NCBI GenBank assembly: GCA_002724315.1
Contig: PBOJ01000102.1
Location: 10,925 to 74,924 of the forward strand
Length of the DNA: 64,000 nt
Direction of reading: 5' to 3'
Source: Planctomycetaceae bacterium
GTDB lineage: Bacteria > Planctomycetota > Planctomycetia > Planctomycetales > Planctomycetaceae
Part shown: piece after piece, positions 7,285-41,421 of the stretch
Layout: each line of letters begins with the position of its first letter
Position numbering within the stretch: position 1 is the first letter of the stretch
Program-made: the position numbers and the translations under genes
Notes under the pieces: generated by a model
What the model was told of the DNA's origin: nothing
Databases searched by the model: none
What the model saw: the letters and a program-made list of their open reading frames with translations, nothing else

Positions 7285-7705
7285 TCTCCCGGGTGGTCAT
7301 CGCGGTACCTTCCCTGTTGAAGGCCGAAATCAATTCTTCAGCCAGTCGCAGATGAATCGGCCGCCCCTTCTTCTCCCGGATCGCCGCCAGAATCCACCGG
7401 ATCGCCAAGGTCTGGCGTCGCTTCGGATTGACCGGTGTCGGCACCTGGTAGGTCGCTCCCCCGACTCGCTTGGAGCGAACCTCGATCATCGGCTTGATGT
7501 TCTCCACAGCCTGTGTGAAGACCTCAATGGGCTCCTCGCCCGAGACCCGTTCGCCGATCACATCCAACGCGTTGTAGAAGACCCGCTGCGCGATGCTCTT
7601 CTTCCCATCGTGCATCAGGCAGTTGACGAACTTCGAGGCCAGCACCGAATCGAACCGAGGATCGGGCTTCAACTGGGCGGCACTGGCAGTAAAACGCTTG
7701 GGCAT
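7232..7705 (-). CDS. rpsG: 30S ribosomal protein S7
   Basis: ORF 7232..7759 trimmed to [31 protein letters not shown]...; S7 family (…[22 protein letters not shown]…). Confidence 0.92.
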
Positions 7706-7768
7706 CGGGAAGAACCGGGCGAATCGGAATGGGAGGACCGGGGAGGCAACGAACAGCACACCCAGGAG

Positions 7769-8140
7769 TTATTGAGGTTTCTTGGCTCCGTAACGGCTAC
7801 GGGCTTGGCGACGATCTTCGACGCCCAGCGTATCGAGTACCCCACGGATGATCTTGTATCGGACACCGGGCAAGTCACGCACTCGGCCACCACGAACCAG
7901 CACAATCGAGTGCTCTTGCAGGTTGTGGCCTTCACCGGGAATGTAAGCGGTGACTTCCTTGCCGTTGGAGAGTCGGACACGGGCGACCTTCCGCAAAGCC
8001 GAGTTGGGCTTCTTGGGAGTCACCGTCTTCACCTGAAGGCACACTCCCCGCTTCTGCGGGCAGCCTTCCAGCAATGGCGTGTTGCTCTTGGAACGCTTGC
8101 GCTTCCGCGGCTTGCGTACCAGTTGGTTAATCGTCGGCAC
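7769..8140 (-). CDS. rpsL: 30S ribosomal protein S12 (probable GTG start)
   Basis: (V/M)[33 protein letters not shown]...; canonical S12. GTG at plus 8138-8140 preceded by AGGCGGA RBS. ORF-track start 8167 (TTG) would add 9 residues. Confidence 0.92.
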
Positions 8141-8260
8141 AGGGTCCGCCTGAAAAAAACGGGTCAACTAACGTGAATCGCCCACTCTATTGCGCCCCCG
8201 GGGCGCCGTCAAGCGACGGGATTCAAAGAGCCACAGGGCCTCTCGTCCCCCGATCGCAGG

Positions 8261-12676
<4,416 letters not shown>

Positions 12677-26118: not shown

Positions 26119-28548
26119 ATGTCCCGCTTGATCACCCTGACCCTGTTGCTGCTGGTCTCGGCGCGCGCTCCGGCCGCCGACAAGCCAGCCGAAATCGCCT
26201 ATTTCGAGAAACACGTCCGTCCGTTGCTGATACGCCGCTGTTACTCGTGCCACTCGGCACGCAGCAAGCCGATCCGTGGCGAGCTGAGTCTCGACACTCG
26301 ACGCGGCTGGCAAACCGGGGGAGAAAGCGGACCGGCAATCCGGCCAGGACGTCCCGACGACAGCCTGCTGATCCAGGCCATTCGCCATGGAGACGATGGC
26401 CTGAAGATGCCACCCAAGAAAAAACTGCCGATCGAGGAGATCCGGATCCTGGAACGCTGGGTTGCCCGCGGAGCGGTCGACCCCCGGACCGGTGATCCAA
26501 CTTCGGGCCGCAAACGTGGCGGGGCCGACCACTGGGCTTTCCAGCCCGTTCGGCCGGGCAAGGTTCCCATCGCCGCCAAGAGCCACACGAGCTGGATCCG
26601 CACACCAATTGACAGTTTTGTGCTCTCGCGGCTGTCCGACGCCGGCCTGGCCCCCTCACCACCGGCAGATCGCCGGGTGCTGCTCCGCCGGGTCACCTTC
26701 GACCTCACCGGACTGCCTCCCACACCCGAACAGGTGGCATCATTCCTGGCAGACAACCGGCCGGGGGCCTGGGGACGACTGGTCGACCGGCTACTGGGCA
26801 GCCCCCACTACGGTGCTCGCTGGGGCCGGCACTGGCTCGACGTCGCCCGCTACGCCGATTCGAACGGGCTAGACGAAAACGTTGCCCACGGCAACGCCTG
26901 GCGGTACCGAGACTGGGTGATCGACTCACTGAACGCCGACCGTCCGTTTGATTCCTTCGTGAGAGATCAACTGGCCGGGGACCTGGGACCAGGGCGGTCC
27001 AGAGAATCTGAGCAGCAGCGACACCGGCGAATGATTGCCACCGGGTTCCTGTCACTGGGCCCCAAGGTGCTGGCCGAGGTCGATGCCAAGAAGATGGAGA
27101 TGGACATCGTCGACGAACAGGTCGACACCGTCGGCCGGGCCTTCATGGGCCTCACGCTTGGATGTGCACGGTGCCATGACCACAAGTTCGACCCGGTCTC
27201 CACTCGCGACTACTACGCCCTGGCCGGGGTGTTCCAGAGCACCCGAACGATGGAGCACTTCAACAAGGTGGCCCGCTGGTGGGAGAACCCCATCGCCACC
27301 GCTGCCGACCAGCAGCGGCTCGAGACGCACAAGACACGGATCGCCGAAAAGAAAGCCGCAATCGACGCGATCGTCGAGGCGGCCACCAAGGTGGTCGGCG
27401 ACGCCCCTTCCACCGGAGACAAGGGGAAACCGAAGCCGGGCAACATCGAGAAGCAATTCTCAGACGAAACCCGCACTACGCTCAAGCGTCTCCGCCAGGA
27501 ACTCGAGACGCTGCGGGGAGCCACCCCGGAACTGCCCACCGCAATGGGAGTCACCGACGGCACGGTGACCAACCTGGCCGTCCACATCCGCGGGAGCCAC
27601 CTGGACCTGGGCGAAACGGTACCGCGAGGTGTCCCCGAAGTGATTGCCGGCCCCGGCGCGAAACCGTTCCCGGCCAAGCAGAGCGGTCGGCGGGAACTGG
27701 CCGACTGGCTGACCCGGCCGGACAATCCTCTGACGGCCCGCGTCTTCGTCAATCGTCTCTGGCGGTGGCACTTCGGCCGCGGACTGGTCGTCTCAACTGA
27801 CAACTTCGGTCAACTGGGCCGACGCCCCAGCCACCCCCGGCTGCTCGACTTTCTCGCCGCCGAACTTGTCCGCGGAAACTGGTCGATCAAACGCCTGCAC
27901 CGACTGATCGTGCTCTCGGCCACCTACCGCATGCAGAGCAGTCCTCGGAAAGACGCCATGGCCGTCGACCCCGAAAACCGGCTCTGGTGGCGGAGTCCGC
28001 TGCGGCGACTCGAGGCCGAAGCCCTGCGGGACGCGATGCTGGCCGTCGCCGGACAACTCGACCCGCAGATGGGAGGTTCGCTGCTGCACGTGAAGAACCG
28101 GGGTTACTTCTTCGACCACACCTCAAAAGACGAGACCCGGTACAACGTGCCCCGTCGCTCGGTCTACCTGCCGGTCGTCCGCAATCATCTCTACGACGTC
28201 TTCACCCTGTTCGATTACACCGACGCCAGCGTGATGACCGGCGACCGTGCCAGCACCACCGTCGCTCCGCAGGCCCTGTTCCTGCTCAACAGCGATCTGG
28301 TCGAACAGGCCAGCCGCCGGCTGGCCCGGACGGTCCTGGCCAGCCAGGCCACCGATGACTCCGAACGAATTGACCGGCTCTGCGAGCACGTGCTTGGTCG
28401 CCCGGCCACCGCCTCGGACCTTCGCCGCTGCTCGAGATTCCTCGAACGGATCCGCGGAGCCCTGCCCGAGAACTCCCAGCCCACCGACGCCTGGTCGGCA
28501 CTTTGCCATGTGCTGCTGGCCAGCAATGAGTTCATCTACCTGAAGTGA
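26119..28548 (+). CDS. Secreted PSCyt1 (CxxCH) + PSCyt2 (DUF1549) + PSD1 (DUF1553) protein
   Basis: Signal peptide. CYSCH heme-c motif at residues 41-45. DUF1553 signature LGCARCHDHKFDP. 809 aa. Planctomycete-specific family. Confidence 0.85.
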   Translation: MSRLITLTLLLLVSARAPAADKPAEIAYFEKHVRPLLIRRCYSCHSARSKPIRGELSLDTRRGWQTGGESGPAIRPGRPDDSLLIQAIRHGDDGLKMPPKKKLPIEEIRILERWVARGAVDPRTGDPTSGRKRGGADHWAFQPVRPGKVPIAAKSHTSWIRTPIDSFVLSRLSDAGLAPSPPADRRVLLRRVTFDLTGLPPTPEQVASFLADNRPGAWGRLVDRLLGSPHYGARWGRHWLDVARYADSNGLDENVAHGNAWRYRDWVIDSLNADRPFDSFVRDQLAGDLGPGRSRESEQQRHRRMIATGFLSLGPKVLAEVDAKKMEMDIVDEQVDTVGRAFMGLTLGCARCHDHKFDPVSTRDYYALAGVFQSTRTMEHFNKVARWWENPIATAADQQRLETHKTRIAEKKAAIDAIVEAATKVVGDAPSTGDKGKPKPGNIEKQFSDETRTTLKRLRQELETLRGATPELPTAMGVTDGTVTNLAVHIRGSHLDLGETVPRGVPEVIAGPGAKPFPAKQSGRRELADWLTRPDNPLTARVFVNRLWRWHFGRGLVVSTDNFGQLGRRPSHPRLLDFLAAELVRGNWSIKRLHRLIVLSATYRMQSSPRKDAMAVDPENRLWWRSPLRRLEAEALRDAMLAVAGQLDPQMGGSLLHVKNRGYFFDHTSKDETRYNVPRRSVYLPVVRNHLYDVFTLFDYTDASVMTGDRASTTVAPQALFLLNSDLVEQASRRLARTVLASQATDDSERIDRLCEHVLGRPATASDLRRCSRFLERIRGALPENSQPTDAWSALCHVLLASNEFIYLK

Positions 28549-28569
28549 TCCACCGAAGTCGCATTCCAC

Positions 28570-29964
28570 ATGTTCACCCGCCGTCATCTCCTGCAGTCCT
28601 CGGCCGTCGGCTTCCCGATGCTGGCCCTGCGAAGCCTTCTCGAGGCCGACACCTTCGGCCAGGGACCGAACCCGCTTGCATCGCGCTTGGCCCATCACGC
28701 CCCGCGGGCCAAGCGGATCCTGTTTTTGTTCATGAAGGGAGGCCCCTCGCAGGTCGACACCTTCGACCACAAGCCCCGGCTGCAGAAGGACCACGGGAAG
28801 CCATTGCCCTTCGACAAGCCTCGGGTGCAATTCGCCGACACCGGCAAGCTCCTGGGCTCCCCCTGGACCTTCAGCCGGCACGGCGAGTGTGGCCTGCCCG
28901 TCAGCGAGTTGTTCCCCCACACCGCCCGCCACGCTGACGACCTCTGTGTGATCAACTCCGTCCACGGAACCAATGCCGCTCACGGCGGAGCCCTGCTGAA
29001 ACTGCATACCGGCAGCGACAACTTCGTCCGTCCGAGCATCGGATCGTGGGTCAGCTACGGACTGGGAACCGAAAACGGTGACCTGCCGGCGTTCGTCACC
29101 ATCTGCCCGACACTGGCTCACGGGGGAGTCAAAAACTGGGGCAGCGCATTTTTGCCCGCTCCCTTCCAGGGCACACCCATCGGCAATGCCAGCCTCTCGT
29201 CGGCCGATGCCCGCGTCCCCTACCTGGACAACCCGCGTCACTCGAGACAACTCCAGCGTCTCAAGCTCGACCTGCTGGGTCGATTCAACCGACAGCACCT
29301 CGACGACTTCGGCGAGGACGGGCGACTGGAGGCCAGGATCAACTCGTTCGAACTCGCCTTCCGCATGCAGGGAGAAATTCCCGGCATCCAGGACCTCTCA
29401 CAGGAATCCTCGGCAACACACAAGCTGTACGGACTCGACGAAAAGATCACCGAGGACTTCGGTCGACAGTGCCTGCTGGCCCGCAGGTTCCTGGAACGGG
29501 GTGTCCGATTTGTCCAGGTCACTCATAGCGACACCATGGTCCAGTGGGACCAGCACTCCAACCTGCTGAGTGGACACACCAAGAACGCCAAGGAGGTCGA
29601 TCGCCCGATTGGCGGACTGCTGAGCGATCTCAAGGCCCGTGGATTGCTCGAAGACACCCTGGTCTGGTGGGGTGGAGAATTCGGACGCACCCCGTGCGTG
29701 CAAGGGTCCAACGGCCGGGATCACAACCCGGACGGATTCACGATGTGGCTGGCCGGTGGCGGTGCAAAACCGGGACTCCGATACGGTTCGACCGACGAGT
29801 TCGGTTACTACGCCGCCGAGGACAAGGTCCATATCCACGACCTGCACGCCACCATCCTGCATCTGCTCGGACTCGACCACGAGCAGTTGACCTACCGCTA
29901 CGCTGGCCGCGATTTCCGCCTGACCGACGTCTACGGTGACGTGGTCCAGGACGTGATCGCCTGA
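28570..29964 (+). CDS. DUF1501 (sulfatase/alkaline-phosphatase-fold) Tat-signal protein, partner of preceding PSCyt/PSD1 gene
   Basis: [20 protein letters not shown] twin-arginine-like leader. DUF1501 blocks (…[18 protein letters not shown]…, …GGEFGRTP…, …[17 protein letters not shown]…). 22-nt gap after upstream gene. Confidence 0.85.
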
Positions 29965-30293
29965 ATCTCACTCCGCCTGATCGGAGCCGATGAGCCGGTT
30001 CTCGTCGTTCCGGAGCACCTCCACAGCCGTCGAGAGCCAGATCCGGATTTTCCGAGGGGACTTGGTGCCACTGCGGGCAAGAAATCGGGTTCCCCAGCGA
30101 ACACCCGGTACTGAAGCACTGTAATCCCACGAGTTCGGTCACGAAAAATCCGTGAATTCGTCACAATCTGCCCCAATTGACTGATCCCCAACCCCTTTGT
30201 TCTCGTTTTTACTTAGCAGGCTTACCTCTTTTACCCCATAGTGGGTTAGTGGGCTCGATCTCCTGTTGAGGGGTGGCCTGGCTGGAGTCGCTG

Positions 30294-30923
30294 ATGAGTT
30301 TCGACCTCTCCGGATTCTATTACCGATGTTTCGCCGAACCTGCACTACAACCTGCCGGCCTGGTGATCGCCATATTGGCGGTGTACTGGTCGTTGGTGAT
30401 GTTCGGCGCAGTCGACCTCGAGCTCCTCGACTGGAACTTCGAGATCAGCCTCGACGGCGACAGCGGAGCACTGGATTTCGGACTGGTCCCACTGCGGTAC
30501 CTCAATCTCGGCACCATTCCGGTCATGCTCTGGATGACCGTCTTCGGGTTCTCGGCCTGGATGCTTTCACTACTGATCCACTACGTCTGGGCTCCCGATC
30601 AGCCCGACGGGGTGGTGATTGCCGAGGCGTTTGGCCTGGCAACCCTGGCCACCAAGCTCGCCACCAATCCGTTTCGATCGGTCTTCGAGATCGTCGAACC
30701 CCATCGTCCCGATACACTGATCGGCCAAACCTGCACAATCTCCACGCTCACGGCCACAGACGCGAGCGGCGAGGCACATTTTTCCAGCGAGGGGGCACCG
30801 TTGATCCTCTCGGTTCGCACTTCAGACGGCGATCTGACCAAGGGGCAGACGGCCAAAATTATTGAATACAACCGGTCTGACAACACGTACATCGTGAGCG
30901 GCACAATTGGGGGAGACGAGTAA
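30294..30923 (+). CDS. NfeD/YqiJ-like inner-membrane protein (4 TM + C-terminal soluble beta domain), first gene of flotillin cassette
   Basis: ORF 30273(GTG)..30923; ATG at 30294. Hydrophobic N-terminal helices then C-terminal soluble segment (TCTISTLTATDASGEAHFSSEGAPLILSVRTSDGDLTKGQTAKIIEYNRSDNTYIVSG) resembling NfeD OB-fold. Stop TAA overlaps flotillin ATG (TAATG). Family assignment is inferred, not searched. Confidence 0.6.
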   Translation: MSFDLSGFYYRCFAEPALQPAGLVIAILAVYWSLVMFGAVDLELLDWNFEISLDGDSGALDFGLVPLRYLNLGTIPVMLWMTVFGFSAWMLSLLIHYVWAPDQPDGVVIAEAFGLATLATKLATNPFRSVFEIVEPHRPDTLIGQTCTISTLTATDASGEAHFSSEGAPLILSVRTSDGDLTKGQTAKIIEYNRSDNTYIVSGTIGGDE

Positions 30924-33079
30924 TGGGTTACGTGGAAATTGCACTCTATGGCATCGGTGGATTGGTCGCGCTTGCGATCGTCTCCTTCTTCATTCTCAGT
31001 GCCTTCTACCGCAAGCCAGGACCTGAGGAGGCGATTGTTCGGACCGGCGTCGGCGGACTGAAGGTCCAGACCGGCAAGGGGATGATCATCGTCCCGGTCG
31101 CCCACTCGGCCGACAAAATGGACCTCTCGGTCAAGCGGATCGAGATCGCACGTGAAGGCGAAGACGGTCTGATTTGCCAGGACAACATCCGGGCCGACAT
31201 CCGGGTGGCGTTCTACGTCCGGGTCAACAACCAGCAGAGCGACATCATGCAGGTCGCCGAGATGCTCAACCCGAAACGAGCCTCGGAGATCAACCAGCTC
31301 CGCGAACTCTTCGAAGCCAAGTTCTCCGAAGCACTCAAGACCGTCGGCAAACAGTTCGACTTCGTCAGTCTCTACACCGACCGCGACAACTTCCGTGAAC
31401 AGATCCTCAACGTGATCGGAACCGACCTCAACGGTTATCGGCTCGACAACTGCCACATCGATTACCTCGAGCAGACTCCCGTGGAGAGTCTCAACCCGCA
31501 GAACATCCTGGACGCCGAAGGGATCAAGAAGATCACCGAGTTGACAACCCAGGAGAACATGAAGCGGAATTCCTTCGAGGTCGAAGAATCCAAGGTCATC
31601 AAGCAGCAGAACGTCGACCGTGACCAGGCGTTGTATGAACTCGAACGACAACGGGTCGATGCCGAGGAGAAGCAGAAGCGGGAGATCGCCGAGATCACTG
31701 CGAGGAACCAGGCGGCTGCCGCCCAGGTCCAGGAAGAGGAGCGTCAGCGGGCCGAGTCGGCTCGGATCGTTGCCGAGGAACAGATCCAGGTGGCCGAACA
31801 GAACAAGGACCGCCAGATCATCGTGGCCCTGCGCAACAAGGAACGGACCGACCAGGTCGAGATCGAGCGGGTCGAGAAGGACCGGATGCTGGAAGTGACC
31901 GAACGGGAACGCGTGGTCGGTCTTGCCGACATCGAGAAGGACAAGGCGATCGAGATCGAGAAGCGGAATATCCAGGAAGTGATCCGCGAACGCGTGATGG
32001 TCGAACGCGGCGTGGTCGAAGAACAGGAAAACATCAAGAACACCCAGGAAATCATGACCGCCGACCGGGCCAAGACCGTCGCGGTCACCATGGCCGAGAA
32101 AGACGCCCAGGAGTCGTTGGTCATCCAGGTCAAGGCGGCCGAGGCCGAGAAGCAGTCGGCCGAATTCGGTGCCCAGCAGGTGGTCATCGAGGCCGACGCC
32201 CAGCGGGATGCGGCCGAACGCGAAATGCAGGCCACCAAGATGTTGGCCGAAGCCAAGACCGCCGACAAGGCGGCCGAGGGACTCGCCGAAGCCCAGGTCA
32301 CCATGGCCAAGGCCGATGCCCTGGAGAAAGAGGGCACCGCTGAAGCGTCGGTGATCCAGAGGAAGGGTGAGGCCGAGGCGGTCGTGATCGACCAGACCGG
32401 CAGTGCCGAGGCCACCATCGTGCAGAAGAAGGCTGTCGCCGAAGCCAAGGGCGACGAGGCCATGGCGGTCGCGACCGAGAAGGTCGGAACGGCCGAAGCC
32501 AGCGTGATGGGACTGAAATTCAACGCCGAAGCGACCGGCATCAAGGAGAAAGCCGAGTCAATGAAACTGTTCCATGCCGCGGGCAAGGAACACGAGGAAT
32601 TCAAGCTGCAACTCAACAAGGACAAGGACATCGAGATCGCCGCGATCGACGCACAGCAAAATATCGCGGAGGCCCAGGCCGAGATCGTCGGCGAGGCCTT
32701 GAAGAACTCGACCATCGACATCGTCGGCGGCGAGACAACCTTCTTCGACAAGATCGTCGACTCGATCAAGGCCGGAAAGAGTGTCGACCGGTTCGTCGGC
32801 AACAGCGACGTGCTCACCGACGTCAAGAACACGTTCTTCAACGGCGACAACGAGTACTTCGCCGCCCAGCTGAGACAGTTCACCGGCCAGTTCGGTGTCA
32901 GTTTCGAAGACGTCAAGGACCTCTCGGTCGCAGCACTGGTTGGACGGCTGATCACGATGGCCGACAACGAGGACGACAAGTCGCGGCTGGAGGACCTGTT
33001 GCGAGTCTTCCGCGGGGCGGGAGTCGCCAGCCAGAAGGTCGCTACGCTGGGCCTGACCGACGGGAAGCAAGCCAAGTAA
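30923..33079 (+). CDS. Flotillin-like SPFH/Band-7 protein (YqiK/FloT-like) with about 330-aa A/E/K-rich coiled-coil extension
   Basis: N-terminal TM anchor (IALYGIGGLVALAIVSFFIL) then SPFH core (EAIVRTGVGGLKVQTGKGMIIVPVAHSADKMDLSVKRIEIAREGEDGLICQDNIRADIRVAFYVRV). Long EA-rich heptad-like region typical of flotillins but extended (718 aa). Confidence 0.88.
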   Translation: MGYVEIALYGIGGLVALAIVSFFILSAFYRKPGPEEAIVRTGVGGLKVQTGKGMIIVPVAHSADKMDLSVKRIEIAREGEDGLICQDNIRADIRVAFYVRVNNQQSDIMQVAEMLNPKRASEINQLRELFEAKFSEALKTVGKQFDFVSLYTDRDNFREQILNVIGTDLNGYRLDNCHIDYLEQTPVESLNPQNILDAEGIKKITELTTQENMKRNSFEVEESKVIKQQNVDRDQALYELERQRVDAEEKQKREIAEITARNQAAAAQVQEEERQRAESARIVAEEQIQVAEQNKDRQIIVALRNKERTDQVEIERVEKDRMLEVTERERVVGLADIEKDKAIEIEKRNIQEVIRERVMVERGVVEEQENIKNTQEIMTADRAKTVAVTMAEKDAQESLVIQVKAAEAEKQSAEFGAQQVVIEADAQRDAAEREMQATKMLAEAKTADKAAEGLAEAQVTMAKADALEKEGTAEASVIQRKGEAEAVVIDQTGSAEATIVQKKAVAEAKGDEAMAVATEKVGTAEASVMGLKFNAEATGIKEKAESMKLFHAAGKEHEEFKLQLNKDKDIEIAAIDAQQNIAEAQAEIVGEALKNSTIDIVGGETTFFDKIVDSIKAGKSVDRFVGNSDVLTDVKNTFFNGDNEYFAAQLRQFTGQFGVSFEDVKDLSVAALVGRLITMADNEDDKSRLEDLLRVFRGAGVASQKVATLGLTDGKQAK

Positions 33080-33115
33080 TTGGCACCCGGCAACCATTCG
33101 CCAGGAATTCCCGTG

Positions 33116-36100
33116 ATGGCCGACGAAGAACGTCTCCAGAACGAGGCCGCAGCGGCTGACTCAACAGCCGATGCCGCCTCCCAGACCACCGACAACGCCC
33201 CCGGTGCACCCGCAACCGGTGACGGGCCGCAGTTGGAGAGTGGGACGTACGAGATCATTCGGGGACGGCTGGTCTCCCACGGCCAGGACCTCCGCAAGAG
33301 GCTTGGCACGCTCAACGACGCCCGCAAGGACGCATTCGGGTCGATCGAGACGACGTTGCTGGGAACCGAGAGGATCACGACCGAGCACAACTGCGTGCCG
33401 CGGGACATGGTCTCGATCGGCTCGCACCTGCTGTTTGGCTACAACGTCACCTTCGGGTTGAAGTCCGAGATCAACATCGAGGACGTTTTCGCCGTGCACG
33501 GTTTTGCCGACGGGAAGTTCTCCCCCGGCACGCTGGACCTGATTTCCGACGACCGATTCCGCAAGGACTTCGAAGACGTCTACAAGTACTACAAGCACGC
33601 CACCTTCGCGAGGTTCTTCCAGACCGACGTGTACCTGTTCATGGTCTTCCGCGTCGGTGCCTCGGTCAACGACATCAAGTCGTTCAAGTGGGCGATCTCC
33701 GACGACGGCCTGACCTACATCGACAACCGCTCGGACCACGAGGTGGTCTTTCCGCCGCAGCACGGATTCGAGTGGACACTGGCCACGCGGGACATGCAGC
33801 AGTCCGGCACGCACCCTCATATCTCGATTGCCGACCGTGTCTTCGTCGAGACTGTCGGCGGGGACCTGACGGTCAAGATCGAGGACAACACCGCCAGTGG
33901 CGAGGGCATCTACTCCGAACCCGTCGAACACGTCGACCAGACCCTCGACGACGCACGCGTCGACTACTCGATCCTGGGCAACATCATCCTGATGAAGGTT
34001 CGGCCCTACCAGGAGAATGCCGACCGGTACCTGGTCTACAACGAGAAGGCCCAACAGGTGGTGCGACTCGACTCGATCGAGCACGCCTGCGTCATGCTGC
34101 CCGACGACCACGGACTGATCTTCTCCAACGGCTACTACCTGCAGACCGGCGAAAACAAGACCTTCGAGAGCGATCTGCAGGACATGCAGTTCGCCGGCCG
34201 CATCGACTCGCCCAACGGCGAAGACTTCCTCTACGTCTTCCACAATCGCGATTCGGGCGTCTACATCCTGCTCAACTACAACCTGATCGAGCAGAAGGTC
34301 GAGACCCCCCTGATCTGTCACGGCTTCTCGTTGTTCGACGGCGGCGAACTGGTCTGCTTCCGCTCGCAGGAAGCCGCGGCCAAACACCATGCGATCCAGG
34401 TCTGGCAAACCCCCTACACGGGAGAGGGTTACGAGCCACCGGGGCAGGAGGAGACGTTCCTGCACAAGGTGGGCAACAAGGACATCGTGCGGGGCATGGC
34501 CGAGTGCCACGAGGTGCTCGGACTGATCAACAAGGAGGACACCTACGCCAACCTCTACGTCGACATCGTCAAGCAGTCGACCGACATCCTCGACAGCTTC
34601 TTCTGGATCACCAACGAGGAAACCGGCAGCCTGGCCACCCCGCTCGGGGAGATCCGGAACGCAGCCGCCTCTGCGATCGACGAGTTCGAGAAGGTGGTGC
34701 GGGTCAAGCGGAACACCGCCAGCGAGACGTCGCGGGTCGAGGGTGAGACTCGCGAGATCATCGCCGACGTCAGCCGGCGGCGGTTCGAAACGATCCAGGA
34801 CTTCGTCGACTCCCTCGCCGCACTCCGACGCATCCGCGGTGACATCATCACCCTGCGAGACCTCCGCTACGTCGACACCGCACTGGTCGACCAACTCGAG
34901 CAGGAAGTCTCCGAGCAGAATGACACCCTGTCGCACCGCTGTGTCGAGTTCCTGCTCCGACCCGAGTCGCTGGCTCCCTATGAGAAGAAGGTGGCCGAGG
35001 AACTCGCCGGGATCGAGGAGCTGACGAAGGTCAGTGACGCCAAGACACTGCAGGAAGCCATCGACCAGAGCGCTGCTGACCTCGAGATGCTCATCGACAT
35101 CGTCAGCAACCTCGAGATCGACGACGCCACTCAGCGAACCGCGATCATCGACAACATCTCCAACATCTTCTCGACGGTCAACCAGGCCCGTGCCGCGCTC
35201 AAGAAGAAGTCCCGCGACCTGATGTCGGTCGAGGGTGTTGCCGAATTCAACTCGCAGCTGAAACTGCTCGATCAGTCGATCGTCAACTACCTCGATGTCT
35301 GCGATTCGCCGGAGAAATGCGACGAGTTCCTCACCAAGGTGATGATCGGTATCGAAGAACTCGAAGGCAGATTCGCCGAGTTCGACGAGTTCGTCGTGCA
35401 GTTGTCCGAGAAACGTGACGAGGTCTACAACGCGTTCGAATCCCGGAAGCTGCAACTGGTCGAAGCCCGCAACAAGCGGGCCAATGCCCTGATGTCAGCG
35501 GCCGAGCGAATCCTGGGCGGAATCCAGAGCCGAGTCGGAACCCTCGAAAGCGTCAACGACATCAACGGCTATTTCGCCTCGGACCTGATGATCGACAAGG
35601 TCCGCGACATCGTCGACCAGCTCAAGGAACTCGAGGACAGCGTCAAGGTCGACGACATCCAGAGTCGACTGAAGACGATCCGCGAGGACGCCGTCCGTCA
35701 ACTCAAGGATCGCCAGGACCTGTTCGTCGGCGGTGACAACGTCATCAAGATGGGCAACCATCACTTCTCGGTCAACGTCCAGCAACTGGATCTGACGACC
35801 GTCTTCCGTGATGACGAAATGGCCCTGCACCTGACCGGCACCGACTTCTTCGAACCGATCGGAGACGAGGACTTCCTGGCAACCAGGGAGTTGTGGCGAC
35901 AGGACATCGTCAGCGAAACGGCCGAGGTGTACCGGGGCGAGTACCTGGCATACCGGCTGTTCCAGGGCCTGGGAAGCGGGGAACTGCCGGAACGGGACGA
36001 GGTGTTGGCGATGGAGCCCGACGCCCGACTGGCGGTGGTGCAGGAGTTCATGGGGCCACGGTATGCCGAGAGCTACGTCAAGGGCGTTCACGACCGTGAC

Positions 36101-38776
36101 GCCAGCCAGATCCTCGGTGCCCTGCTCCAGATGAACTCGCGGATCGGACTGCTCCGTTACCACGCTCGCTCGCGAGCGATGGCCAAGGTCTTCTGGTCCC
36201 GCTTCGGGGACAAACCGTCCAAGGACCGTATCGCCGCACAGCTCCGGGGTTTCGGCAACGTCAGCCGCGCCTTTCCCGGCACCGGCGCACAGGCCGCCTA
36301 CGTCGCCTCGCTGACCGGGATGCTCGAACAGTTCGTCACCGACGAGGGGCTGTTCCACAACAACCTCGTCGGGGAAGCCGCCGAGTATCTCTTCGCCGAA
36401 CTCACCGACCCCGACTCGGGATTCGTCATCAGTCGCACCGCAGCCGAATTGCACGATTCGTTCACCGCCCATCTCAAGAGTTCCGGGCACGACAGCCAGT
36501 TCACCCAGAGCCTGTCCGGGGTCAAGAAGGACTCGGCCGGCGGACTCCACGTGGCCCGGGATTGGGTCGAGGCCTTTCTCGAAAGCCGTGCCGACGCCGA
36601 GACGGCCGACTACATCGACGAGGTGGCGGTCTTGCTGCTGGAGGGATCCATCGATCGCAAGGCCGTCGTCGACGCTTCGGCCGTCGCCGAGCTCGACGAC
36701 CTAGCCGGTGACCACTCCGTCATCGACGGCAGCCACTACCACCTGCACTACAACCGCTTCATGCAGAGGCTGGCACGCTTCCACCAGAATCGCGTGCCGC
36801 GGTTCCTGGCCTACCAGGAGCAGAAGAAAGAACTGGTCGAAACGGCGCGGGAGGGAATGCGACTCGAGGAGTTCCGGCCCCGCGTCCTGACCTCGTTCGT
36901 ACGCAACAAGCTGATCGACCAGGTCTATCTCCCTGTCGTCGGTGACAACCTGGCCAAACAGATGGGTGTTGTCGGCGAGGAGAAGCGAACCGACCTGATG
37001 GGGCTGCTGCTGCTGGTCTCACCGCCAGGTTACGGCAAAACCACGTTGATGGAGTACATCGCCAACCGGCTGGGCATCATCTTCATGAAGATCAACGGCC
37101 CGGCCATCGGTCACCACGTCACCTCGCTGGACCCATCCGAGGCACCCAATGCAGCCGCCCGCGAGGAAGTCGAGAAACTGAACCTCGCCCTGGAAATGGG
37201 CGACAACGTGATGATCTATCTCGACGACATCCAGCACACCAACCCGGAGTTCCTCCAGAAGTTCATCTCGCTGTGCGACGCCCAGCGAAAGATCGAGGGT
37301 GTCTACAAGGGCCGCACACGCACCTACGACCTGCGGGGACGCAAGGTCTGCGTCGTGATGGCCGGCAACCCGTACACCGAGAGCGGTGAAAAGTTCCAGA
37401 TCCCCGACATGCTCACCAACCGGGCCGACATCTACAACCTCGGCGAGATGATCGGTGAGAGTGCCGAGGCGTTCGAGATGAGTTACCTCGAGAACTGCCT
37501 CACCTCCAATTCCGCCCTCAACCAGCTGGCCACCCGCAGCCAGGACGATGTCTACGCTGTGATCCGCATGGCCGAGGGCGAGACGCCCGACGGCATCGAA
37601 CTCGAAGGCAACTACTCGGCCGAAGAACTCTCCGAATTCGTCGTCGTGATGAAGAAGCTGATGCGGGTCCGCGACGTGATCCTGGCGGTCAATCGCGAGT
37701 ACATCCGCTCGGCGGCCATGTCCGATGACTACCGCACCGAGCCGGCCTTCAAGCTGCAGGGATCCTACCGCAACATGAACCGGATCGCCGAAAAGGTGGT
37801 CCCGATCATGAACGATGACGAACTCCAGTCGCTGATCGTCTCCAACTACGAGAACGACTCACAGACGCTGACCTCCGATACCGAGGCCAACCTGCTGAAG
37901 TTCAAGGAACTGATCAACGCCCTGACCGAGGACGAAGTCGCCCGGTGGGAGACAATCAAGAAGACCTTCCAGCAGAACGTGAAGATGCGAGGTGTCGGCG
38001 CCGACGACAAGGTCGGACAGGTGGTCGTCCAGTTGAGCAGCTTCAGCGAGGGACTCGAGTCGATACGTGACGCGATGGCCGACGGACTTGAACAACTCGC
38101 CGCCGGAAACGGCGAACCGGCTGCAGTGGTTGAGGACCAGGAGCAGACGGACCCAGAACCCGCCGCCCTCGAGCAGCTGCTCACCGGACAACTCGACGGC
38201 GTCACCTCCGGGCTGGACCAGATTCGCCAGGCCATGGCCGATGGACTCGACCGACTCGTTTCGAGCGATTCCTCCGACGCCGCGTCGCCGGCCGCCAACG
38301 CGGACATCGCCGGACACGTTGCCGGTCTCCGGGAAAGTCTCGATGCCATTCGCGACGCGTTGTCCGAAGCGGCCGCCCGCCCGGTCACCGTTGCCGCGGC
38401 CGAACCGGAAGCGGAAGAACAGCCGGACGAAACCGAAGACGAATCATCCCAGACGGACGTTCTGCCGGTGACGGTCGTCGAACCCGACGACCCCGAGGAC
38501 GAAGACGGAGAAGAAGAACTCGAGCGACTTGCCGGTGCGAACACGATCACCGTCGTCAACAAGATCCCGCCCAGCCTGCTGAAGGTACTCCGGCAGCAGT
38601 TTCGTCTGATGGAAGGCTGGATGGAACCACTGTTGAAGAGCAGCCAGACGCAACAGAAGGAGCTCAGGGAGCTCCGCGAGCATCTCGACACGACCCTCGA
38701 TGACTACGAACGCCTGATCGGGCAAGTCTCGGGCAGAAAATCCAAGCGAGGCCGAGCCCGTCGGGCCGACAGCTAG
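33116..38776 (+). CDS. Giant (about 1,886 aa) multidomain protein: unassigned N-terminal globular region, long alpha-helical middle, MoxR/AAA_5-like ATPase module, repeat-bearing acidic C-terminal tail
   Basis: Continuous ORF 33080(TTG)..38776; ATG at 33116 preferred. Walker A LLLLVSPPGYGKTTL (about nt 37009-37053). Walker B NVMIYLDDIQH (about nt 37198-37233). AAA_5-like VCVVMAGNPYTESGEKFQIPDMLTNRADIYNL. Only 36 nt after flotillin stop. Confidence 0.8.
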   Translation: MADEERLQNEAAAADSTADAASQTTDNAPGAPATGDGPQLESGTYEIIRGRLVSHGQDLRKRLGTLNDARKDAFGSIETTLLGTERITTEHNCVPRDMVSIGSHLLFGYNVTFGLKSEINIEDVFAVHGFADGKFSPGTLDLISDDRFRKDFEDVYKYYKHATFARFFQTDVYLFMVFRVGASVNDIKSFKWAISDDGLTYIDNRSDHEVVFPPQHGFEWTLATRDMQQSGTHPHISIADRVFVETVGGDLTVKIEDNTASGEGIYSEPVEHVDQTLDDARVDYSILGNIILMKVRPYQENADRYLVYNEKAQQVVRLDSIEHACVMLPDDHGLIFSNGYYLQTGENKTFESDLQDMQFAGRIDSPNGEDFLYVFHNRDSGVYILLNYNLIEQKVETPLICHGFSLFDGGELVCFRSQEAAAKHHAIQVWQTPYTGEGYEPPGQEETFLHKVGNKDIVRGMAECHEVLGLINKEDTYANLYVDIVKQSTDILDSFFWITNEETGSLATPLGEIRNAAASAIDEFEKVVRVKRNTASETSRVEGETREIIADVSRRRFETIQDFVDSLAALRRIRGDIITLRDLRYVDTALVDQLEQEVSEQNDTLSHRCVEFLLRPESLAPYEKKVAEELAGIEELTKVSDAKTLQEAIDQSAADLEMLIDIVSNLEIDDATQRTAIIDNISNIFSTVNQARAALKKKSRDLMSVEGVAEFNSQLKLLDQSIVNYLDVCDSPEKCDEFLTKVMIGIEELEGRFAEFDEFVVQLSEKRDEVYNAFESRKLQLVEARNKRANALMSAAERILGGIQSRVGTLESVNDINGYFASDLMIDKVRDIVDQLKELEDSVKVDDIQSRLKTIREDAVRQLKDRQDLFVGGDNVIKMGNHHFSVNVQQLDLTTVFRDDEMALHLTGTDFFEPIGDEDFLATRELWRQDIVSETAEVYRGEYLAYRLFQGLGSGELPERDEVLAMEPDARLAVVQEFMGPRYAESYVKGVHDRDASQILGALLQMNSRIGLLRYHARSRAMAKVFWSRFGDKPSKDRIAAQLRGFGNVSRAFPGTGAQAAYVASLTGMLEQFVTDEGLFHNNLVGEAAEYLFAELTDPDSGFVISRTAAELHDSFTAHLKSSGHDSQFTQSLSGVKKDSAGGLHVARDWVEAFLESRADAETADYIDEVAVLLLEGSIDRKAVVDASAVAELDDLAGDHSVIDGSHYHLHYNRFMQRLARFHQNRVPRFLAYQEQKKELVETAREGMRLEEFRPRVLTSFVRNKLIDQVYLPVVGDNLAKQMGVVGEEKRTDLMGLLLLVSPPGYGKTTLMEYIANRLGIIFMKINGPAIGHHVTSLDPSEAPNAAAREEVEKLNLALEMGDNVMIYLDDIQHTNPEFLQKFISLCDAQRKIEGVYKGRTRTYDLRGRKVCVVMAGNPYTESGEKFQIPDMLTNRADIYNLGEMIGESAEAFEMSYLENCLTSNSALNQLATRSQDDVYAVIRMAEGETPDGIELEGNYSAEELSEFVVVMKKLMRVRDVILAVNREYIRSAAMSDDYRTEPAFKLQGSYRNMNRIAEKVVPIMNDDELQSLIVSNYENDSQTLTSDTEANLLKFKELINALTEDEVARWETIKKTFQQNVKMRGVGADDKVGQVVVQLSSFSEGLESIRDAMADGLEQLAAGNGEPAAVVEDQEQTDPEPAALEQLLTGQLDGVTSGLDQIRQAMADGLDRLVSSDSSDAASPAANADIAGHVAGLRESLDAIRDALSEAAARPVTVAAAEPEAEEQPDETEDESSQTDVLPVTVVEPDDPEDEDGEEELERLAGANTITVVNKIPPSLLKVLRQQFRLMEGWMEPLLKSSQTQQKELRELREHLDTTLDDYERLIGQVSGRKSKRGRARRADS

Positions 38777-38860: not shown

Positions 38861-39220
38861 TCACCCTCCCCGCCTCCAGTGCAGGCGGTTCTTGCTGAGC
38901 ACGCCACGGCGACGCGCACACTCCAGGCAAAATTTCTCGTCGTCGTACTGGACATACAGTTCGCCGGCCATCAGCAGGTGATAGAACTCCTCGCCGGGGT
39001 TCTTGGCGAAACAGTACTCACGCTCCCAGGTCGTCTTGAGTTTCACCGTCCAGCCGTCCTCCCAGCCGGGCAGGTAGAGCCGCGAATCGTCGTCCGTTTC
39101 CGGCGATTGACTGGTGTCCTCGTCGGCCAAGTTGTCGGAATCACCCGAAATCGGCTGCGACGGTGGCCCGTCCCACAGGTCATCGAGATTCGAAAACCCC
39201 TCGGGAAGTTCTCCGCTCAT
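38861..39220 (-). CDS. Hypothetical small acidic protein with C-terminal Cys/His-containing domain
   Basis: 119 aa. Acidic N-terminal half (DSDNLADEDTSQSPETDDDS). C-terminal WTVKLKTTWEREYCFAKNPGEEFYHLLMAGELYVQYDDEKFCLECARRRG (C-x16-H-x19-C-x2-C). Convergent with giant ATPase gene. Confidence 0.5.
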   Translation of the reverse strand: MSGELPEGFSNLDDLWDGPPSQPISGDSDNLADEDTSQSPETDDDSRLYLPGWEDGWTVKLKTTWEREYCFAKNPGEEFYHLLMAGELYVQYDDEKFCLECARRRGVLSKNRLHWRRGG

Positions 39221-39499: not shown

Positions 39500-39802
39500 A
39501 TGAGCGACACCCTTGCTGAGATCCGGACGCTGGACGATCTGCAAAACTTCGTACGCAACACACTCTGTGACAAAGAGAACCTGCTGGCCGAAATCACCTC
39601 GATGACTCAGCGGGCCCTGTCACGACGCGGCCGCAATTGTGGGCTGCAGTTTTCCGTCCAGGGACCCCGGAACGTTCGCCTGGGCGCTATCTGGGAAAGC
39701 GACCACAACCAGATCTACTTCTATGACGCCCGGGGCAATCGCTACCTCAAGCTCCCGCTCCCGCATCGCATCGAGATCGACTCGCTCGCCGGAGCCTGCT
39801 AG
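39500..39802 (+). CDS. Hypothetical protein (100 aa)
   Basis: MSDTLAEIRTLDDLQNFVRNTLCDKENLLAEITSMTQRALSRRGRNCGLQFSV...; no recognisable motif. Clean ATG. Stop overlaps nadB stop region. Confidence 0.45.
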   Translation: MSDTLAEIRTLDDLQNFVRNTLCDKENLLAEITSMTQRALSRRGRNCGLQFSVQGPRNVRLGAIWESDHNQIYFYDARGNRYLKLPLPHRIEIDSLAGAC

Positions 39803-41421
39803 CTCGTCGCGATGATGTCGAGGTGCCTCGCCTGCGCAGCGTCGGTCCGGGGGAAGTCGCTCCGCAGGTGGACGCCCCGGCTTTCGGTGCGGGCTCTGGC
39901 CGAGGCAATCATCAGCTGAGCGACCAACAGCAGATTCTGCAGTTCCCATCCCGCCATCTCGCTCAGCTCGCGGTTCGACACGAACCCGTCCCAGAACTCG
40001 ACCCTTTCGGCCGCTTCCTGCATCGACGTCTCGGTTCGCTCGATGCCGACCTGCCGCCACATCAGGCTCGACAGCGAGTTCCTCAGGTCCGTGATGTTCA
40101 ATTCGTCGTCATCTCTCTCGAAGAGGTCTGAGTCCGACGAAAATGTGGGCACTGCGAAATCGTCGGGAATCAATTTCGCTGCCTTCGAAGCGGCCTCCCC
40201 GGCCCGGGCTCCATAGACCAGCCCTTCGACGAGGCTGTTGGATGCCAGACGGTTAGCCCCGTGCAATCCGGTCGAAGTCACCTCACCCGCAGCCCACAGA
40301 CCTGGCAGGGTCGTTCGCCCCTGGTCGTCGACGGTGACCCCTCCGATCATGTAGTGCGCCCCGGGCCGAACCGGAATCTGGTCACAGGTGACATCCAGTC
40401 CGAAATCCGCACAGACACTGGCAATGTGAGGAAACCGGGAGCGGACGAAATCGGCATCCAGGTGCGAAAGATCCAGGTACACACAGGGGTGATTGGTCTT
40501 GGCCATCTGTTGGGTGATCGCCTGGCTGACCACGTCTCGAGGCGCCAACTCGGCTGCCTGGTCAAAATCCGGCATGAAGCGGTGACCGTGGCAATCCCGC
40601 AGCCAGGCTCCTTCACCCCGGATTGCCTCGGTGATCAGATGACGCGAACTGCCGGCGATGTAGAGCACCGTGGGGTGAAACTGCATGAACTCCATGTCCC
40701 GCAAGCTGGCACCGGCACGGAAGGCAATCGCATGTCCGTCTGCGGTGGCAATCTCGGGATTGGTCGTCTCGCGGAACAACTGTCCCGCTCCGCCGGTGGC
40801 CAGGATCGTCTGCTTGGCCCACACGCAGGTCGTCGGCCTTGCGGGATCATGTACGATCGCCCCACGGCAGTGGCCGTCGACGGTCAGCAGATCGATCGTG
40901 AACGTATTCTGCCATACTTGGACCCCATCCCGCTGGACTGCCGCCTCCTGCAATGCCCTCATCACCTCACGTCCGGTCGCGTCTCCATTGGCATGGACGA
41001 CCCGACGGTGACTGTGCCCCCCCTCACGAGTCAGATCAATCAGTCCGTCGGTCTCGTCGAAGCGGGTACCGATCCCGATCAACTCGCGGATTCGTTCCGG
41101 GGCCTCTCGCACCACCATTTCGACCACGTCGTGATCGCACAGCCCCTTGCCCGCAGCGATCGTATCGGCAGTGTGGTTGGCGAAGTCATCGAGCGGATCA
41201 AGTACGCCGGCAATGCCGCCCTGGGCCTCGGCACTGTTGGAGAGTGTCAGCAGATCCTTGGTGACCACGACGGCCGTGAGCCCCGGCTCGAGTCCCAACG
41301 CGGCTCGCAATCCGGCGATCCCTCCACCGATCACCAGAACGTCGGTGAACACATGCGACACCTCCGTCGGCACGATGCTGACCAGGTGGCGACGGCGAAG
41401 TGAAAACTCGATCGATGTCAC
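39799..41421 (-). CDS. nadB: L-aspartate oxidase
   Basis: FAD-binding VLVIGGGIAGLRAAL. Fumarate reductase/succinate dehydrogenase flavoprotein family blocks. C-terminal …GLHGANRLASNSLVEGLVYGARAG…; about 540 aa matches NadB length. Confidence 0.85.
   Translation of the reverse strand: MTSIEFSLRRRHLVSIVPTEVSHVFTDVLVIGGGIAGLRAALGLEPGLTAVVVTKDLLTLSNSAEAQGGIAGVLDPLDDFANHTADTIAAGKGLCDHDVVEMVVREAPERIRELIGIGTRFDETDGLIDLTREGGHSHRRVVHANGDATGREVMRALQEAAVQRDGVQVWQNTFTIDLLTVDGHCRGAIVHDPARPTTCVWAKQTILATGGAGQLFRETTNPEIATADGHAIAFRAGASLRDMEFMQFHPTVLYIAGSSRHLITEAIRGEGAWLRDCHGHRFMPDFDQAAELAPRDVVSQAITQQMAKTNHPCVYLDLSHLDADFVRSRFPHIASVCADFGLDVTCDQIPVRPGAHYMIGGVTVDDQGRTTLPGLWAAGEVTSTGLHGANRLASNSLVEGLVYGARAGEAASKAAKLIPDDFAVPTFSSDSDLFERDDDELNITDLRNSLSSLMWRQVGIERTETSMQEAAERVEFWDGFVSNRELSEMAGWELQNLLLVAQLMIASARARTESRGVHLRSDFPRTDAAQARHLDIIATS

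Follow-up and report, generated by a model that had tools for sequence, protein, structure and literature searches.

Analysis of a 64,000-nucleotide (nt) stretch of DNA from a Planctomycetaceae bacterium (contig PBOJ01000102.1, positions 10,925 to 74,924 of the forward strand; hereafter the window, whose own numbering is used throughout) identified three consecutive plus-strand genes at 30273-38776, termed g1, g2 and g3. They encode a small YqiJ/NfeD-type membrane protein, a YqiK-type flotillin and a very large AAA+ protein of the DUF3686 family, respectively. The trio is inherited together, in this order, across at least nine phyla. We read the locus as the planctomycete version of a membrane module of three genes that is widespread and that may carry out ATP-driven remodelling of a flotillin scaffold or its clients within a PspA-linked stress network, and we put the probability of this reading at roughly 55%. 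The association of the three genes has itself been in print since 2024, from comparative genomics, and hence is no discovery of this study. The genes are listed below, with lengths in amino acids (aa).

30273-30923, + strand: g1, YqiJ/NfeD-type small membrane protein, GTG start, 216 aa
30923-33079, + strand: g2, YqiK-type flotillin, ATG start, 718 aa
33116-38776, + strand: g3, cytoplasmic AAA+ protein of the DUF3686 family, ATG start, 1,886 aa

Conservation of the gene trio

Scanning of one genome per species found relatives of g3 encoded in at least 581 species genomes, and the best 80 loci of these were used for the analysis of gene neighbourhoods. The 80 loci span Planctomycetota (including Phycisphaerae), Verrucomicrobiota, Desulfobacterota, Hydrogenedentota, Calditrichia and Bacteroidota. 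The linkage count was restricted to the 60 loci with more than 3.6 kb of DNA upstream of g3, and at 57 of these (57/60) g1, g2 and g3 occur in identical order and on the same strand; g2, at 48-69% identity, lies directly 5' of g3 in these 57 loci. The median spacers at loci with the trio are 38 nt and 123 nt. Analysis of conserved families around g3 in all 80 loci, by tblastn and clustering of open reading frames (ORFs), detected g3 in 76, g2 in 64 and g1 in 51 loci, and the next family in 12. The recurrent families outside this core with representatives scanned by Pfam are PspA, CesT/Tir, PLD-like, helix-turn-helix (HTH), short-chain dehydrogenase and other metabolic enzymes.

An earlier note, made from the DNA letters of this region, had described the genes as one self-contained operon and had asked whether homologues of g3 usually occur without SPFH and NfeD neighbours. 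Our analysis found linkage in 57 of 60 loci and no other family in more than 12 of 80, which supports one conserved, self-contained unit. Fortuitous adjacency of g3 was rejected on the basis of this linkage. The layout described in that note was also found exactly where it had placed it: three head-to-tail plus-strand genes, in which the stop codon of g1 overlaps the start codon of g2 (TAATG, 30921-30925; GGGGAG lies 8 nt 5' of the ATG) and the stop codon of g2 (33077-33079) is followed by a 36-nt spacer to the ATG of g3. Two of the start sites have in-frame alternatives. For g1, homologue N-termini agree about as well with an in-frame ATG at 30294 as with the GTG. For g3, the reading frame is open from a TTG at 33080, and the ATG at 33116 agrees with the 'MA..E' N-terminus of the homologues.

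Three loci (L050, L051 and L069) lack g1 and g2 upstream of g3 and carry unrelated cargo there instead. The cargo genes found across the three are an AbiEii fragment, a STAND NTPase with TPR, a DUF4258 toxin-like gene and a Ser/Thr kinase; the cargo of L050 lies upstream of g3 at 5553-8360, and that of L051 (9348-9860) and L069 (4330-6975 and 8392-8715) is toxin- or defence-like. These loci are probably insertions or rearrangements and not a sign of independent g3 function. A Pontibacter locus carries a DUF3800 gene between g2 and g3 (L055:8675-9838). The stretch immediately 5' of g3 homologues thus has the look of a hotspot for insertions.

Records labelled plasmid or chromid that contain g3 come from Pseudomonas fluorescens SBW25 (pQBR103), Streptomyces, Nonomuraea, Deinococcus, Hymenobacter, Proteus, Vibrio, Photobacterium and Halomonas. 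The whole trio was seen in every plasmid record inspected, i.e. Pseudomonas pQBR103, Streptomyces, Deinococcus, Hymenobacter, Proteus and Vibrio. Three of the records labelled 'plasmid' (NZ_OL790812.1, NZ_OL790811.1 and NZ_LT559118.1, from Proteus mirabilis and Nonomuraea) are 4-12 Mb long and evidently chromosomes, so the plasmid location of the Proteus mirabilis and Nonomuraea matches needs caution. The cultured planctomycete Symmachiella dynata also carries the trio, and cultured carriers as a whole include Symmachiella, Gimesia, Pontibacter, P. fluorescens SBW25/pQBR103, Proteus mirabilis and Vibrio campbellii. Complete E. coli genomes searched with Proteus g3 DNA gave no match. Close relatives of the planctomycete g3 or g2 also appear under a eukaryotic label (eukprot g33011.t1) or in a Porticoccaceae metagenome-assembled genome (P0097, P0058 and P0202); contamination or mis-binning is the most likely source of these labels, rather than true transfers.

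Identification of the flotillin and its partner

Pfam and NCBIfam searches gave nothing usable for g1 and g2. The Pfam scan of g1 from the window returned no match, NfeD included, and the Pfam Band_7 and Flot models matched neither g2 nor any of the 20 g2 relatives tested. Since Pfam gave no NfeD or Band_7 match for either protein, their identities required profile comparison. The features assigned within the two proteins are as follows.

g1, about residues 145-205: putative C-terminal OB-like domain
30923-31015, g2 residues 1-31: N-terminal transmembrane helix (hydrophobic segment)
31028-31492, g2 about residues 36-190: SPFH region
31514-32707, g2 about residues 198-595: long A/E/K-rich coiled coil, helices in the structural model
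32708-33076, g2 residues 596-718: conserved C-terminal domain

Comparison of the g2 family profile with E. coli YqiK by hhalign gave 100%, E 3.5e-40, over 406 columns (YqiK residues 10-422). This span takes in the Band_7 region of YqiK, which itself matches Pfam Band_7 (residues 39-192) and Flot. Relatives of g2 are named 'flotillin family protein' or 'YqiK' by NCBI and JGI. A PDB search with the single g2 sequence gave no match, and a search of the PDB with the g2 profile gave one, to the coiled coil of QmcA (E 0.0019). The AlphaFold2 (AF2) model of g2 is weak, with a predicted local distance difference test (pLDDT) score of 59, and because of this score its fold matches count as supporting evidence only: the top 28 Foldseek matches in the PDB are all SPFH cage proteins (flotillin, stomatin, HflK/C, prohibitin, erlin and QmcA), led by flotillin 9bq2 (prob 0.99). 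The last ~200 residues of g2 are conserved within its family, and hhalign found no real similarity between them and YqiK. Taken together, the profile and fold evidence identifies g2 as a YqiK-type flotillin with a predicted single N-terminal anchor and a long A/E-rich coiled coil.

In g1, residues 19-52 and 82-102 form hydrophobic segments, and a D-rich acidic loop is also present. The g1 family profile aligned with E. coli YqiJ (hhalign 95%, E 3e-8, 179 columns), and the alignment reaches over the OB region of YqiJ. Among 20 g1 relatives from other loci, Pfam YqiJ_N (PF21001) was matched in 16 and NfeD in two; the best profile match in the PDB, a weak one (E 0.11), is the soluble domain of B. 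subtilis YuaF. By these comparisons g1 is assigned as a YqiJ/NfeD-type (DUF1449) membrane protein with several predicted membrane-spanning segments. The NfeD/YqiJ and flotillin identities proposed in the earlier note thus held, through the profile matches to YqiJ and YqiK, the YqiJ_N matches in 16 of 20 relatives and the SPFH-only top folds.

Two Bacteroidota loci (L042:7041-7592 and L079:6201-6770) contain an extra ORF of ~185 aa between g1 and g2 that is related to the N-terminus of g2. Duplication or splitting of an SPFH piece could account for this ORF, as could a frameshift.

Domain architecture of the giant AAA+ protein

The regions of g3 identified by Pfam matching, structural modelling and alignment are listed below.

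33287-34603, + strand: DUF3686, residues 58-496, N-terminal helix and then a beta domain of ~27 strands
34457-35707, + strand: long helical rod, residues 448-864
34967-35215, + strand: DUF7902 within the helical rod, residues 618-700
35744-36643, + strand: small beta domain (residues 877-914) and then a helical domain (941-1176), from the AF2 model
36866-38035, + strand: AAA+ module and lid, residues 1251-1640
37019-37045, + strand: Walker A SPPGYGKTT, residues 1302-1310
37214-37237, + strand: Walker B IYLDDIQH, with DD and not DE, residues 1367-1374
37361-37435, + strand: sensor-1/arginine region AGNPYTESGEKFQIPDMLTNRADIY (AGNP...NRAD), residues 1416-1440
38066-38773, + strand: variable tail, residues 1651-1885

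Pfam matched three families in g3, namely DUF3686 (PF12458; E 1.6e-191), DUF7902 (PF25472; E 9.9e-28) and AAA (PF00004; E 2.4e-6). The suggestion in the earlier note that the ATPase is the only recognisable module of this protein therefore had to be given up, since DUF3686 (residues 58-496) and DUF7902 (618-700) are recognised as well. Relatives of g3 show the same DUF3686-DUF7902-AAA+ architecture and form more than 5,500 clusters at 90% identity. DUF3686 itself comprises 756 clusters at 50% identity, whose full-length members are always ~1,600-1,930 aa long with the domain at the N-terminus.

The AF2 model of residues 1-1200 (pLDDT 72.6) contains a helix at 42-74 and a beta domain of ~27 strands at 80-431. 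Foldseek searches with this beta domain returned Kelch, WD40, Sec12, Vps18 and IFT-A propellers, and the domain is predicted to be a roughly 7-bladed beta-propeller. No hydrophobic segment was found in g3, in contrast to the anchors of g1 and g2. On the basis of the Pfam matches, the model and the Foldseek results, g3 is described as a soluble protein in which a predicted beta-propeller is followed by a helical rod and then by an AAA+ ATPase.

Alignment of 22 g3 sequences from about nine phyla is free of gaps over residues 51-1650 (nt 33266-38065). For a protein of this size, such gap-free length over 1,600 residues points to an unusually rigid constraint. Within this core, residues 877-1176 are conserved least, with a cross-phylum identity of 33-43%. 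The tail past residue 1650 is lacking in most relatives outside the planctomycetes; it is absent or gapped in those from Bacteroidota, Proteobacteria and Actinobacteria, which are 1,620-1,680 aa long. It contains three 'GL..IR.AMADGL' helices, an acidic low-complexity stretch and a C-terminal peptide, ITVVNKIP...GWMEPL, that is conserved among Planctomycetota.

The ATPase module

The ATPase motifs quoted in the earlier note (SPPGYGKTT, IYLDDIQH and AGNPYTESGEKFQIPDMLTNRADIY) are all present in g3 and are invariant across the family. Comparison of 21 sequences from about nine phyla revealed 78-87% identity over residues 1251-1450; the Walker A core GYGKT, the sensor-1 residue N1418 and R1436 are invariant, and the Walker B motif contains DD (YLDDIQH) in all 21 sequences in place of the DE that is usual for AAA+ proteins. 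We take this DD to resemble the 'IDDIQ' motif of DnaA-type proteins.

Similarity of the AAA+ region to PDB and Pfam entries is restricted to the stretch from the P-loop to Walker B. PDB searches, both with the single sequence and with the profile, found p97, Cdc48 and RuvB, in each case over the P-loop stretch only. Profile comparison by hhalign gave 95% for RuvB, 90% for FtsH and 15% for E. coli RavA, and the RuvB similarity covers ~74 columns of generic AAA+ core. The Pfam model AAA_5 scored 20.1 bits, under the 22-bit Pfam cut-off. No vWA protein was found among the conserved neighbours in the 80 loci, for which representatives of the recurrent families were scanned with Pfam. The MoxR/AAA_5 label that the module had been given from its motifs is thus not borne out by the AAA_5 score, by the profile comparison (RavA at 15% versus RuvB at 95%) or by a vWA partner gene, and MoxR was rejected after the RavA comparison.

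Membrane-stress context and prior description

Genes that point to a membrane-stress context adjoin the trio in some lineages. CesT_Tir_1 and PspA genes lie directly 5' of g1 in five Bacteroidota loci, together with a divergent HTH gene. On pQBR103, PspA and YjfK/L/M/C-like genes precede the trio, and a PLD-like gene is found near the trio in seven loci. On chromosome 2 of Vibrio campbellii (listed as a plasmid), the end of g3 overlaps the start of a PLD-like gene, which is followed by TelA (L087:12834-14612), an arrangement that suggests a longer operon than the trio in Vibrionaceae. Analysis of the 64-kb window by tblastn found no PspA, CesT, PLD or TelA gene, and the window is assigned to the short form of the operon because it holds no CesT/Tir-PspA pair.

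This arrangement was described by Ravi et al. (mSystems 2024, PMC11237479; preprint 2020), who reported a CesT/Tir-PspA operon that also encodes YqiJ/YuaF, a Band-7/flotillin protein and a beta-propeller/coiled-coil/AAA+ protein. They further described shorter operons (flotillin, YqiJ/YuaF and sometimes the ATPase) as more widespread and as possibly working with PspA encoded elsewhere, and they, too, describe a beta-propeller for the DUF3686 region of the giant ATPase. The operon of Ravi et al. and the one analysed here agree in the three core genes, their order and their domain architectures, and differ in that the window lacks CesT/Tir, PspA and PLD. The Dokdonia row of their Table S3 (ANH61663.1) agrees with the Bacteroidota loci found in this study. 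Consequently the system is not undescribed, as the earlier note had supposed, since even its short three-gene form is published. Ravi et al. independently arrived at the same contextual reading, that of a membrane-stress function. Their work is computational only and gives no mechanism, and it is without the DUF3686/DUF7902 identity of the ATPase, the DD of its Walker B motif and its indel-free conservation.

Proposed function and alternatives

In the mechanism that we propose, g2, helped by g1, would assemble an SPFH cage or microdomain that sits on the inner membrane and faces the cytoplasm, by analogy with the solved SPFH-NfeD complexes. The ATPase g3 would oligomerise through its AAA+ module and dock on the flotillin scaffold by means of its propeller or its rod. 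Its use of ATP may then assemble, disassemble or reshape the scaffold, or load or extract the client proteins of the scaffold. The whole module would serve membrane maintenance and the handling of envelope stress, with a functional link to PspA encoded elsewhere in the genome. Among the functions considered for this locus, membrane remodelling and stress response appear to give the best reading of the sequences.

Several points weigh against this proposal. Since PspA, CesT, PLD and TelA are absent from the window, what ties this organism to membrane stress comes from other lineages. Literature searches found no paper naming DUF3686/PF12458 and no experiment on any member of the family. The matches of the AAA+ module do not single out one AAA+ clade, and thus a threading or unfoldase mechanism is not one to assume. 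The DD that replaces DE in Walker B could point to slow hydrolysis or to a switch-like role, which, judged from the motif and from these matches, is as plausible as a processive one. Finally, the structural model of g2 has low confidence (pLDDT 59).

A narrower version of the proposal, tentative and in our judgement clearly less probable than the broad one, is that g3 may be the dedicated assembly or disassembly ATPase of bacterial SPFH cages, possibly acting on adjoining PspA polymers also, and, if so, would do for membrane scaffolds in bacteria what Vps4 or NSF does elsewhere. We know of no SPFH-specific remodelling ATPase in any domain of life. In hundreds of species a YqiK-type flotillin is tied to a very large and extremely conserved ATPase, and g3 gives a handle on the roles of bacterial flotillins and on the building and dismantling of SPFH cages and PspA polymers. 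Its invariant Walker residues are open to mutation, and the trio is available in several cultured hosts.

Four other explanations were weighed against remodelling of the flotillin scaffold. The closest of them, which we regard as rather doubtful, makes g3 a Vps4 analogue that mainly remodels PspA (ESCRT-III-like) polymers, the flotillin/YqiJ pair being only its recruiting platform. The position of CesT/Tir-PspA directly 5' of the trio in Bacteroidota, and of PspA 5' of the trio on pQBR103, fits this idea; an SPFH protein of B. subtilis is cited in the literature as connecting PspA to the membrane, and a 2025 review considers a Vps4-like ATPase for PspA to be apparently absent in bacteria. However, the partners with which g3 travels are g1 and g2 (57 of 60 loci), and PspA accompanies it in only five of 80 loci, all from Bacteroidota, and in the Hymenobacter and pQBR103 records. 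The window has no PspA gene within 30 kb on either side of the trio, and an MIT-like domain was not identified in g3. A membrane-associated anti-phage or conflict system, in which the ATPase would trigger a flotillin-scaffolded effector, is improbable. It is favoured by the patchy distribution of the family, its occurrence on large plasmids, the AbiEii fragment, STAND NTPase, DUF4258 and DUF3800 genes inserted just 5' of g3 in a few loci, and the PLD-like gene nearby in seven loci. Nevertheless, PADLOC reported nothing for g1 and g2 and only faint P-loop matches for g3 (mad8, E 5.8e-4; IetA, E 2.9e-3), and neither the 50,697 phage records searched nor the IMG/VR contigs contained a relative. 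Because these searches were all negative the defence reading was set aside, and the corresponding hypothesis of the earlier note received no support from them. The conserved core also contains no effector domain, the neighbours in the window are housekeeping genes, and the strong indel-free conservation across phyla is unlike that of fast-diversifying defence genes.

The remaining two explanations concern the ATPase itself. As a MoxR-type chaperone, g3 would mature or insert a cofactor-bearing complex, which we consider very improbable. Its AAA+ module aligns weakly with AAA_5 between Walker A and the sensor-1 region, some of the g3 relatives have a precomputed AAA_5 assignment, and the 'NP...NRAD' segment recalls what we take to be MoxR-like motifs; the score of that alignment, however, falls short of the Pfam threshold (20.1 against 22 bits), the hhalign value for E. 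coli RavA is just 15%, and the conserved neighbours include no vWA partner. Hardly credible at all is the reading of g3 as a DNA-repair ATPase whose adjacency to flotillin would be functionally meaningless. Pfam and NCBI name DUF3686 proteins 'ATPase involved in DNA repair' or 'DNA repair ATPase', and the segment from P-loop to Walker B is closest to RuvB. The likeness to RuvB, though, amounts to ~74 columns of generic AAA+ core, searches with g3 turned up no helicase, nuclease or DNA-binding domain, and the conserved neighbours are two membrane genes and no repair gene. No publication backing the name was found, and literature searches for papers joining 'DNA repair ATPase' with 'flotillin' found none. 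The database name 'DNA repair ATPase' is unsupported for these proteins and probably misleading.

Comparison with known systems

The E. coli YqiJ-YqiK and B. subtilis YuaF(NfeD2)-FloT pairs share with g1-g2 their homology, detected by profile for YqiJ and YqiK, and their layout, with the NfeD-type gene first and tight spacing, whereas neither pair includes an AAA+ gene. The flotillin g2 differs further from YqiK in its length (718 versus 553 aa), in escaping the Pfam Band_7 and Flot models and in its dissimilar C-terminal ~200 residues.

The HflK/C-FtsH complex likewise couples an SPFH cage functionally to an AAA+ machine at the inner membrane, and HflK/C is among the fold matches of the g2 model. 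FtsH is a protease anchored in the membrane, and the cage formed by HflK/C is on the periplasmic side. In contrast to FtsH, g3 lacks both a membrane segment and a protease domain, and the two resemble each other at the P-loop only. The QmcA-YbbJ cage (PDB 8z5g) and the eukaryotic flotillin-1/2 dome (PDB 9bq2), both of which were matched, are structural precedents for the product of g1 and g2, and by this analogy g1 and g2 probably build a structure like one of them; unlike the trio, neither precedent has a dedicated ATPase partner.

ESCRT-III and Vps4, a membrane polymer with its dedicated AAA+ protein, serve as a working analogy, and they share a context with the trio in that PspA, a member of the ESCRT-III superfamily, adjoins it in some lineages. 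The analogy does not extend to homology: flotillin is unrelated to ESCRT-III, and in g3 neither an MIT domain nor homology to Vps4 was detected, beyond a generic P-loop similarity to classical AAA proteins such as p97/Cdc48 and FtsH.

Flanking DNA and neighbouring genes

The DNA on either side of the trio contains two candidate regulatory features.

29965-30272, no strand assigned: upstream intergenic gap of 308 nt, presumed promoter region of the operon
38870-38888, + strand: possible terminator hairpin 3' of g3, the sole terminator-like plus-strand match downstream of g3 in the scan

The upstream gap has a GC content of 0.55-0.59 versus 0.61-0.67 in its flanks, as expected from the lower-GC boundary that had been pointed out there, and a scan of the gap found no sigma-70-like consensus. 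Downstream, the earlier note had bracketed the operon with two hairpins and a convergent gene. The convergent gene was found, the nearest being an ORF of 119 aa at 38861-39220 on the minus strand, but the hairpins proved weak: those downstream of g3 are small GC stems, of which only 38870-38888 is terminator-like, and they show no excess over shuffled sequence (seven terminator-like sites in the region versus 8.3 expected; fold z-score -1.85).

The neighbours in the window are ordinary planctomycete genes, comprising PSCyt/PSD1 with DUF1501, a flavoprotein, a short-chain dehydrogenase, ABC-F, a sigma factor, EF-Tu and NusG. The PSCyt1/PSCyt2/PSD1 (809 aa) and DUF1501 (464 aa) genes, a typical planctomycete pair, lie upstream of the operon at 26119-29964; the pair is common to the two closest relatives only (L001 and L002) and is unrelated to the module. 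Past g3, a second small ORF of 100 aa is found at 39500-39802 (+ strand), followed by the convergent flavoprotein gene at 39799-41421 (- strand).

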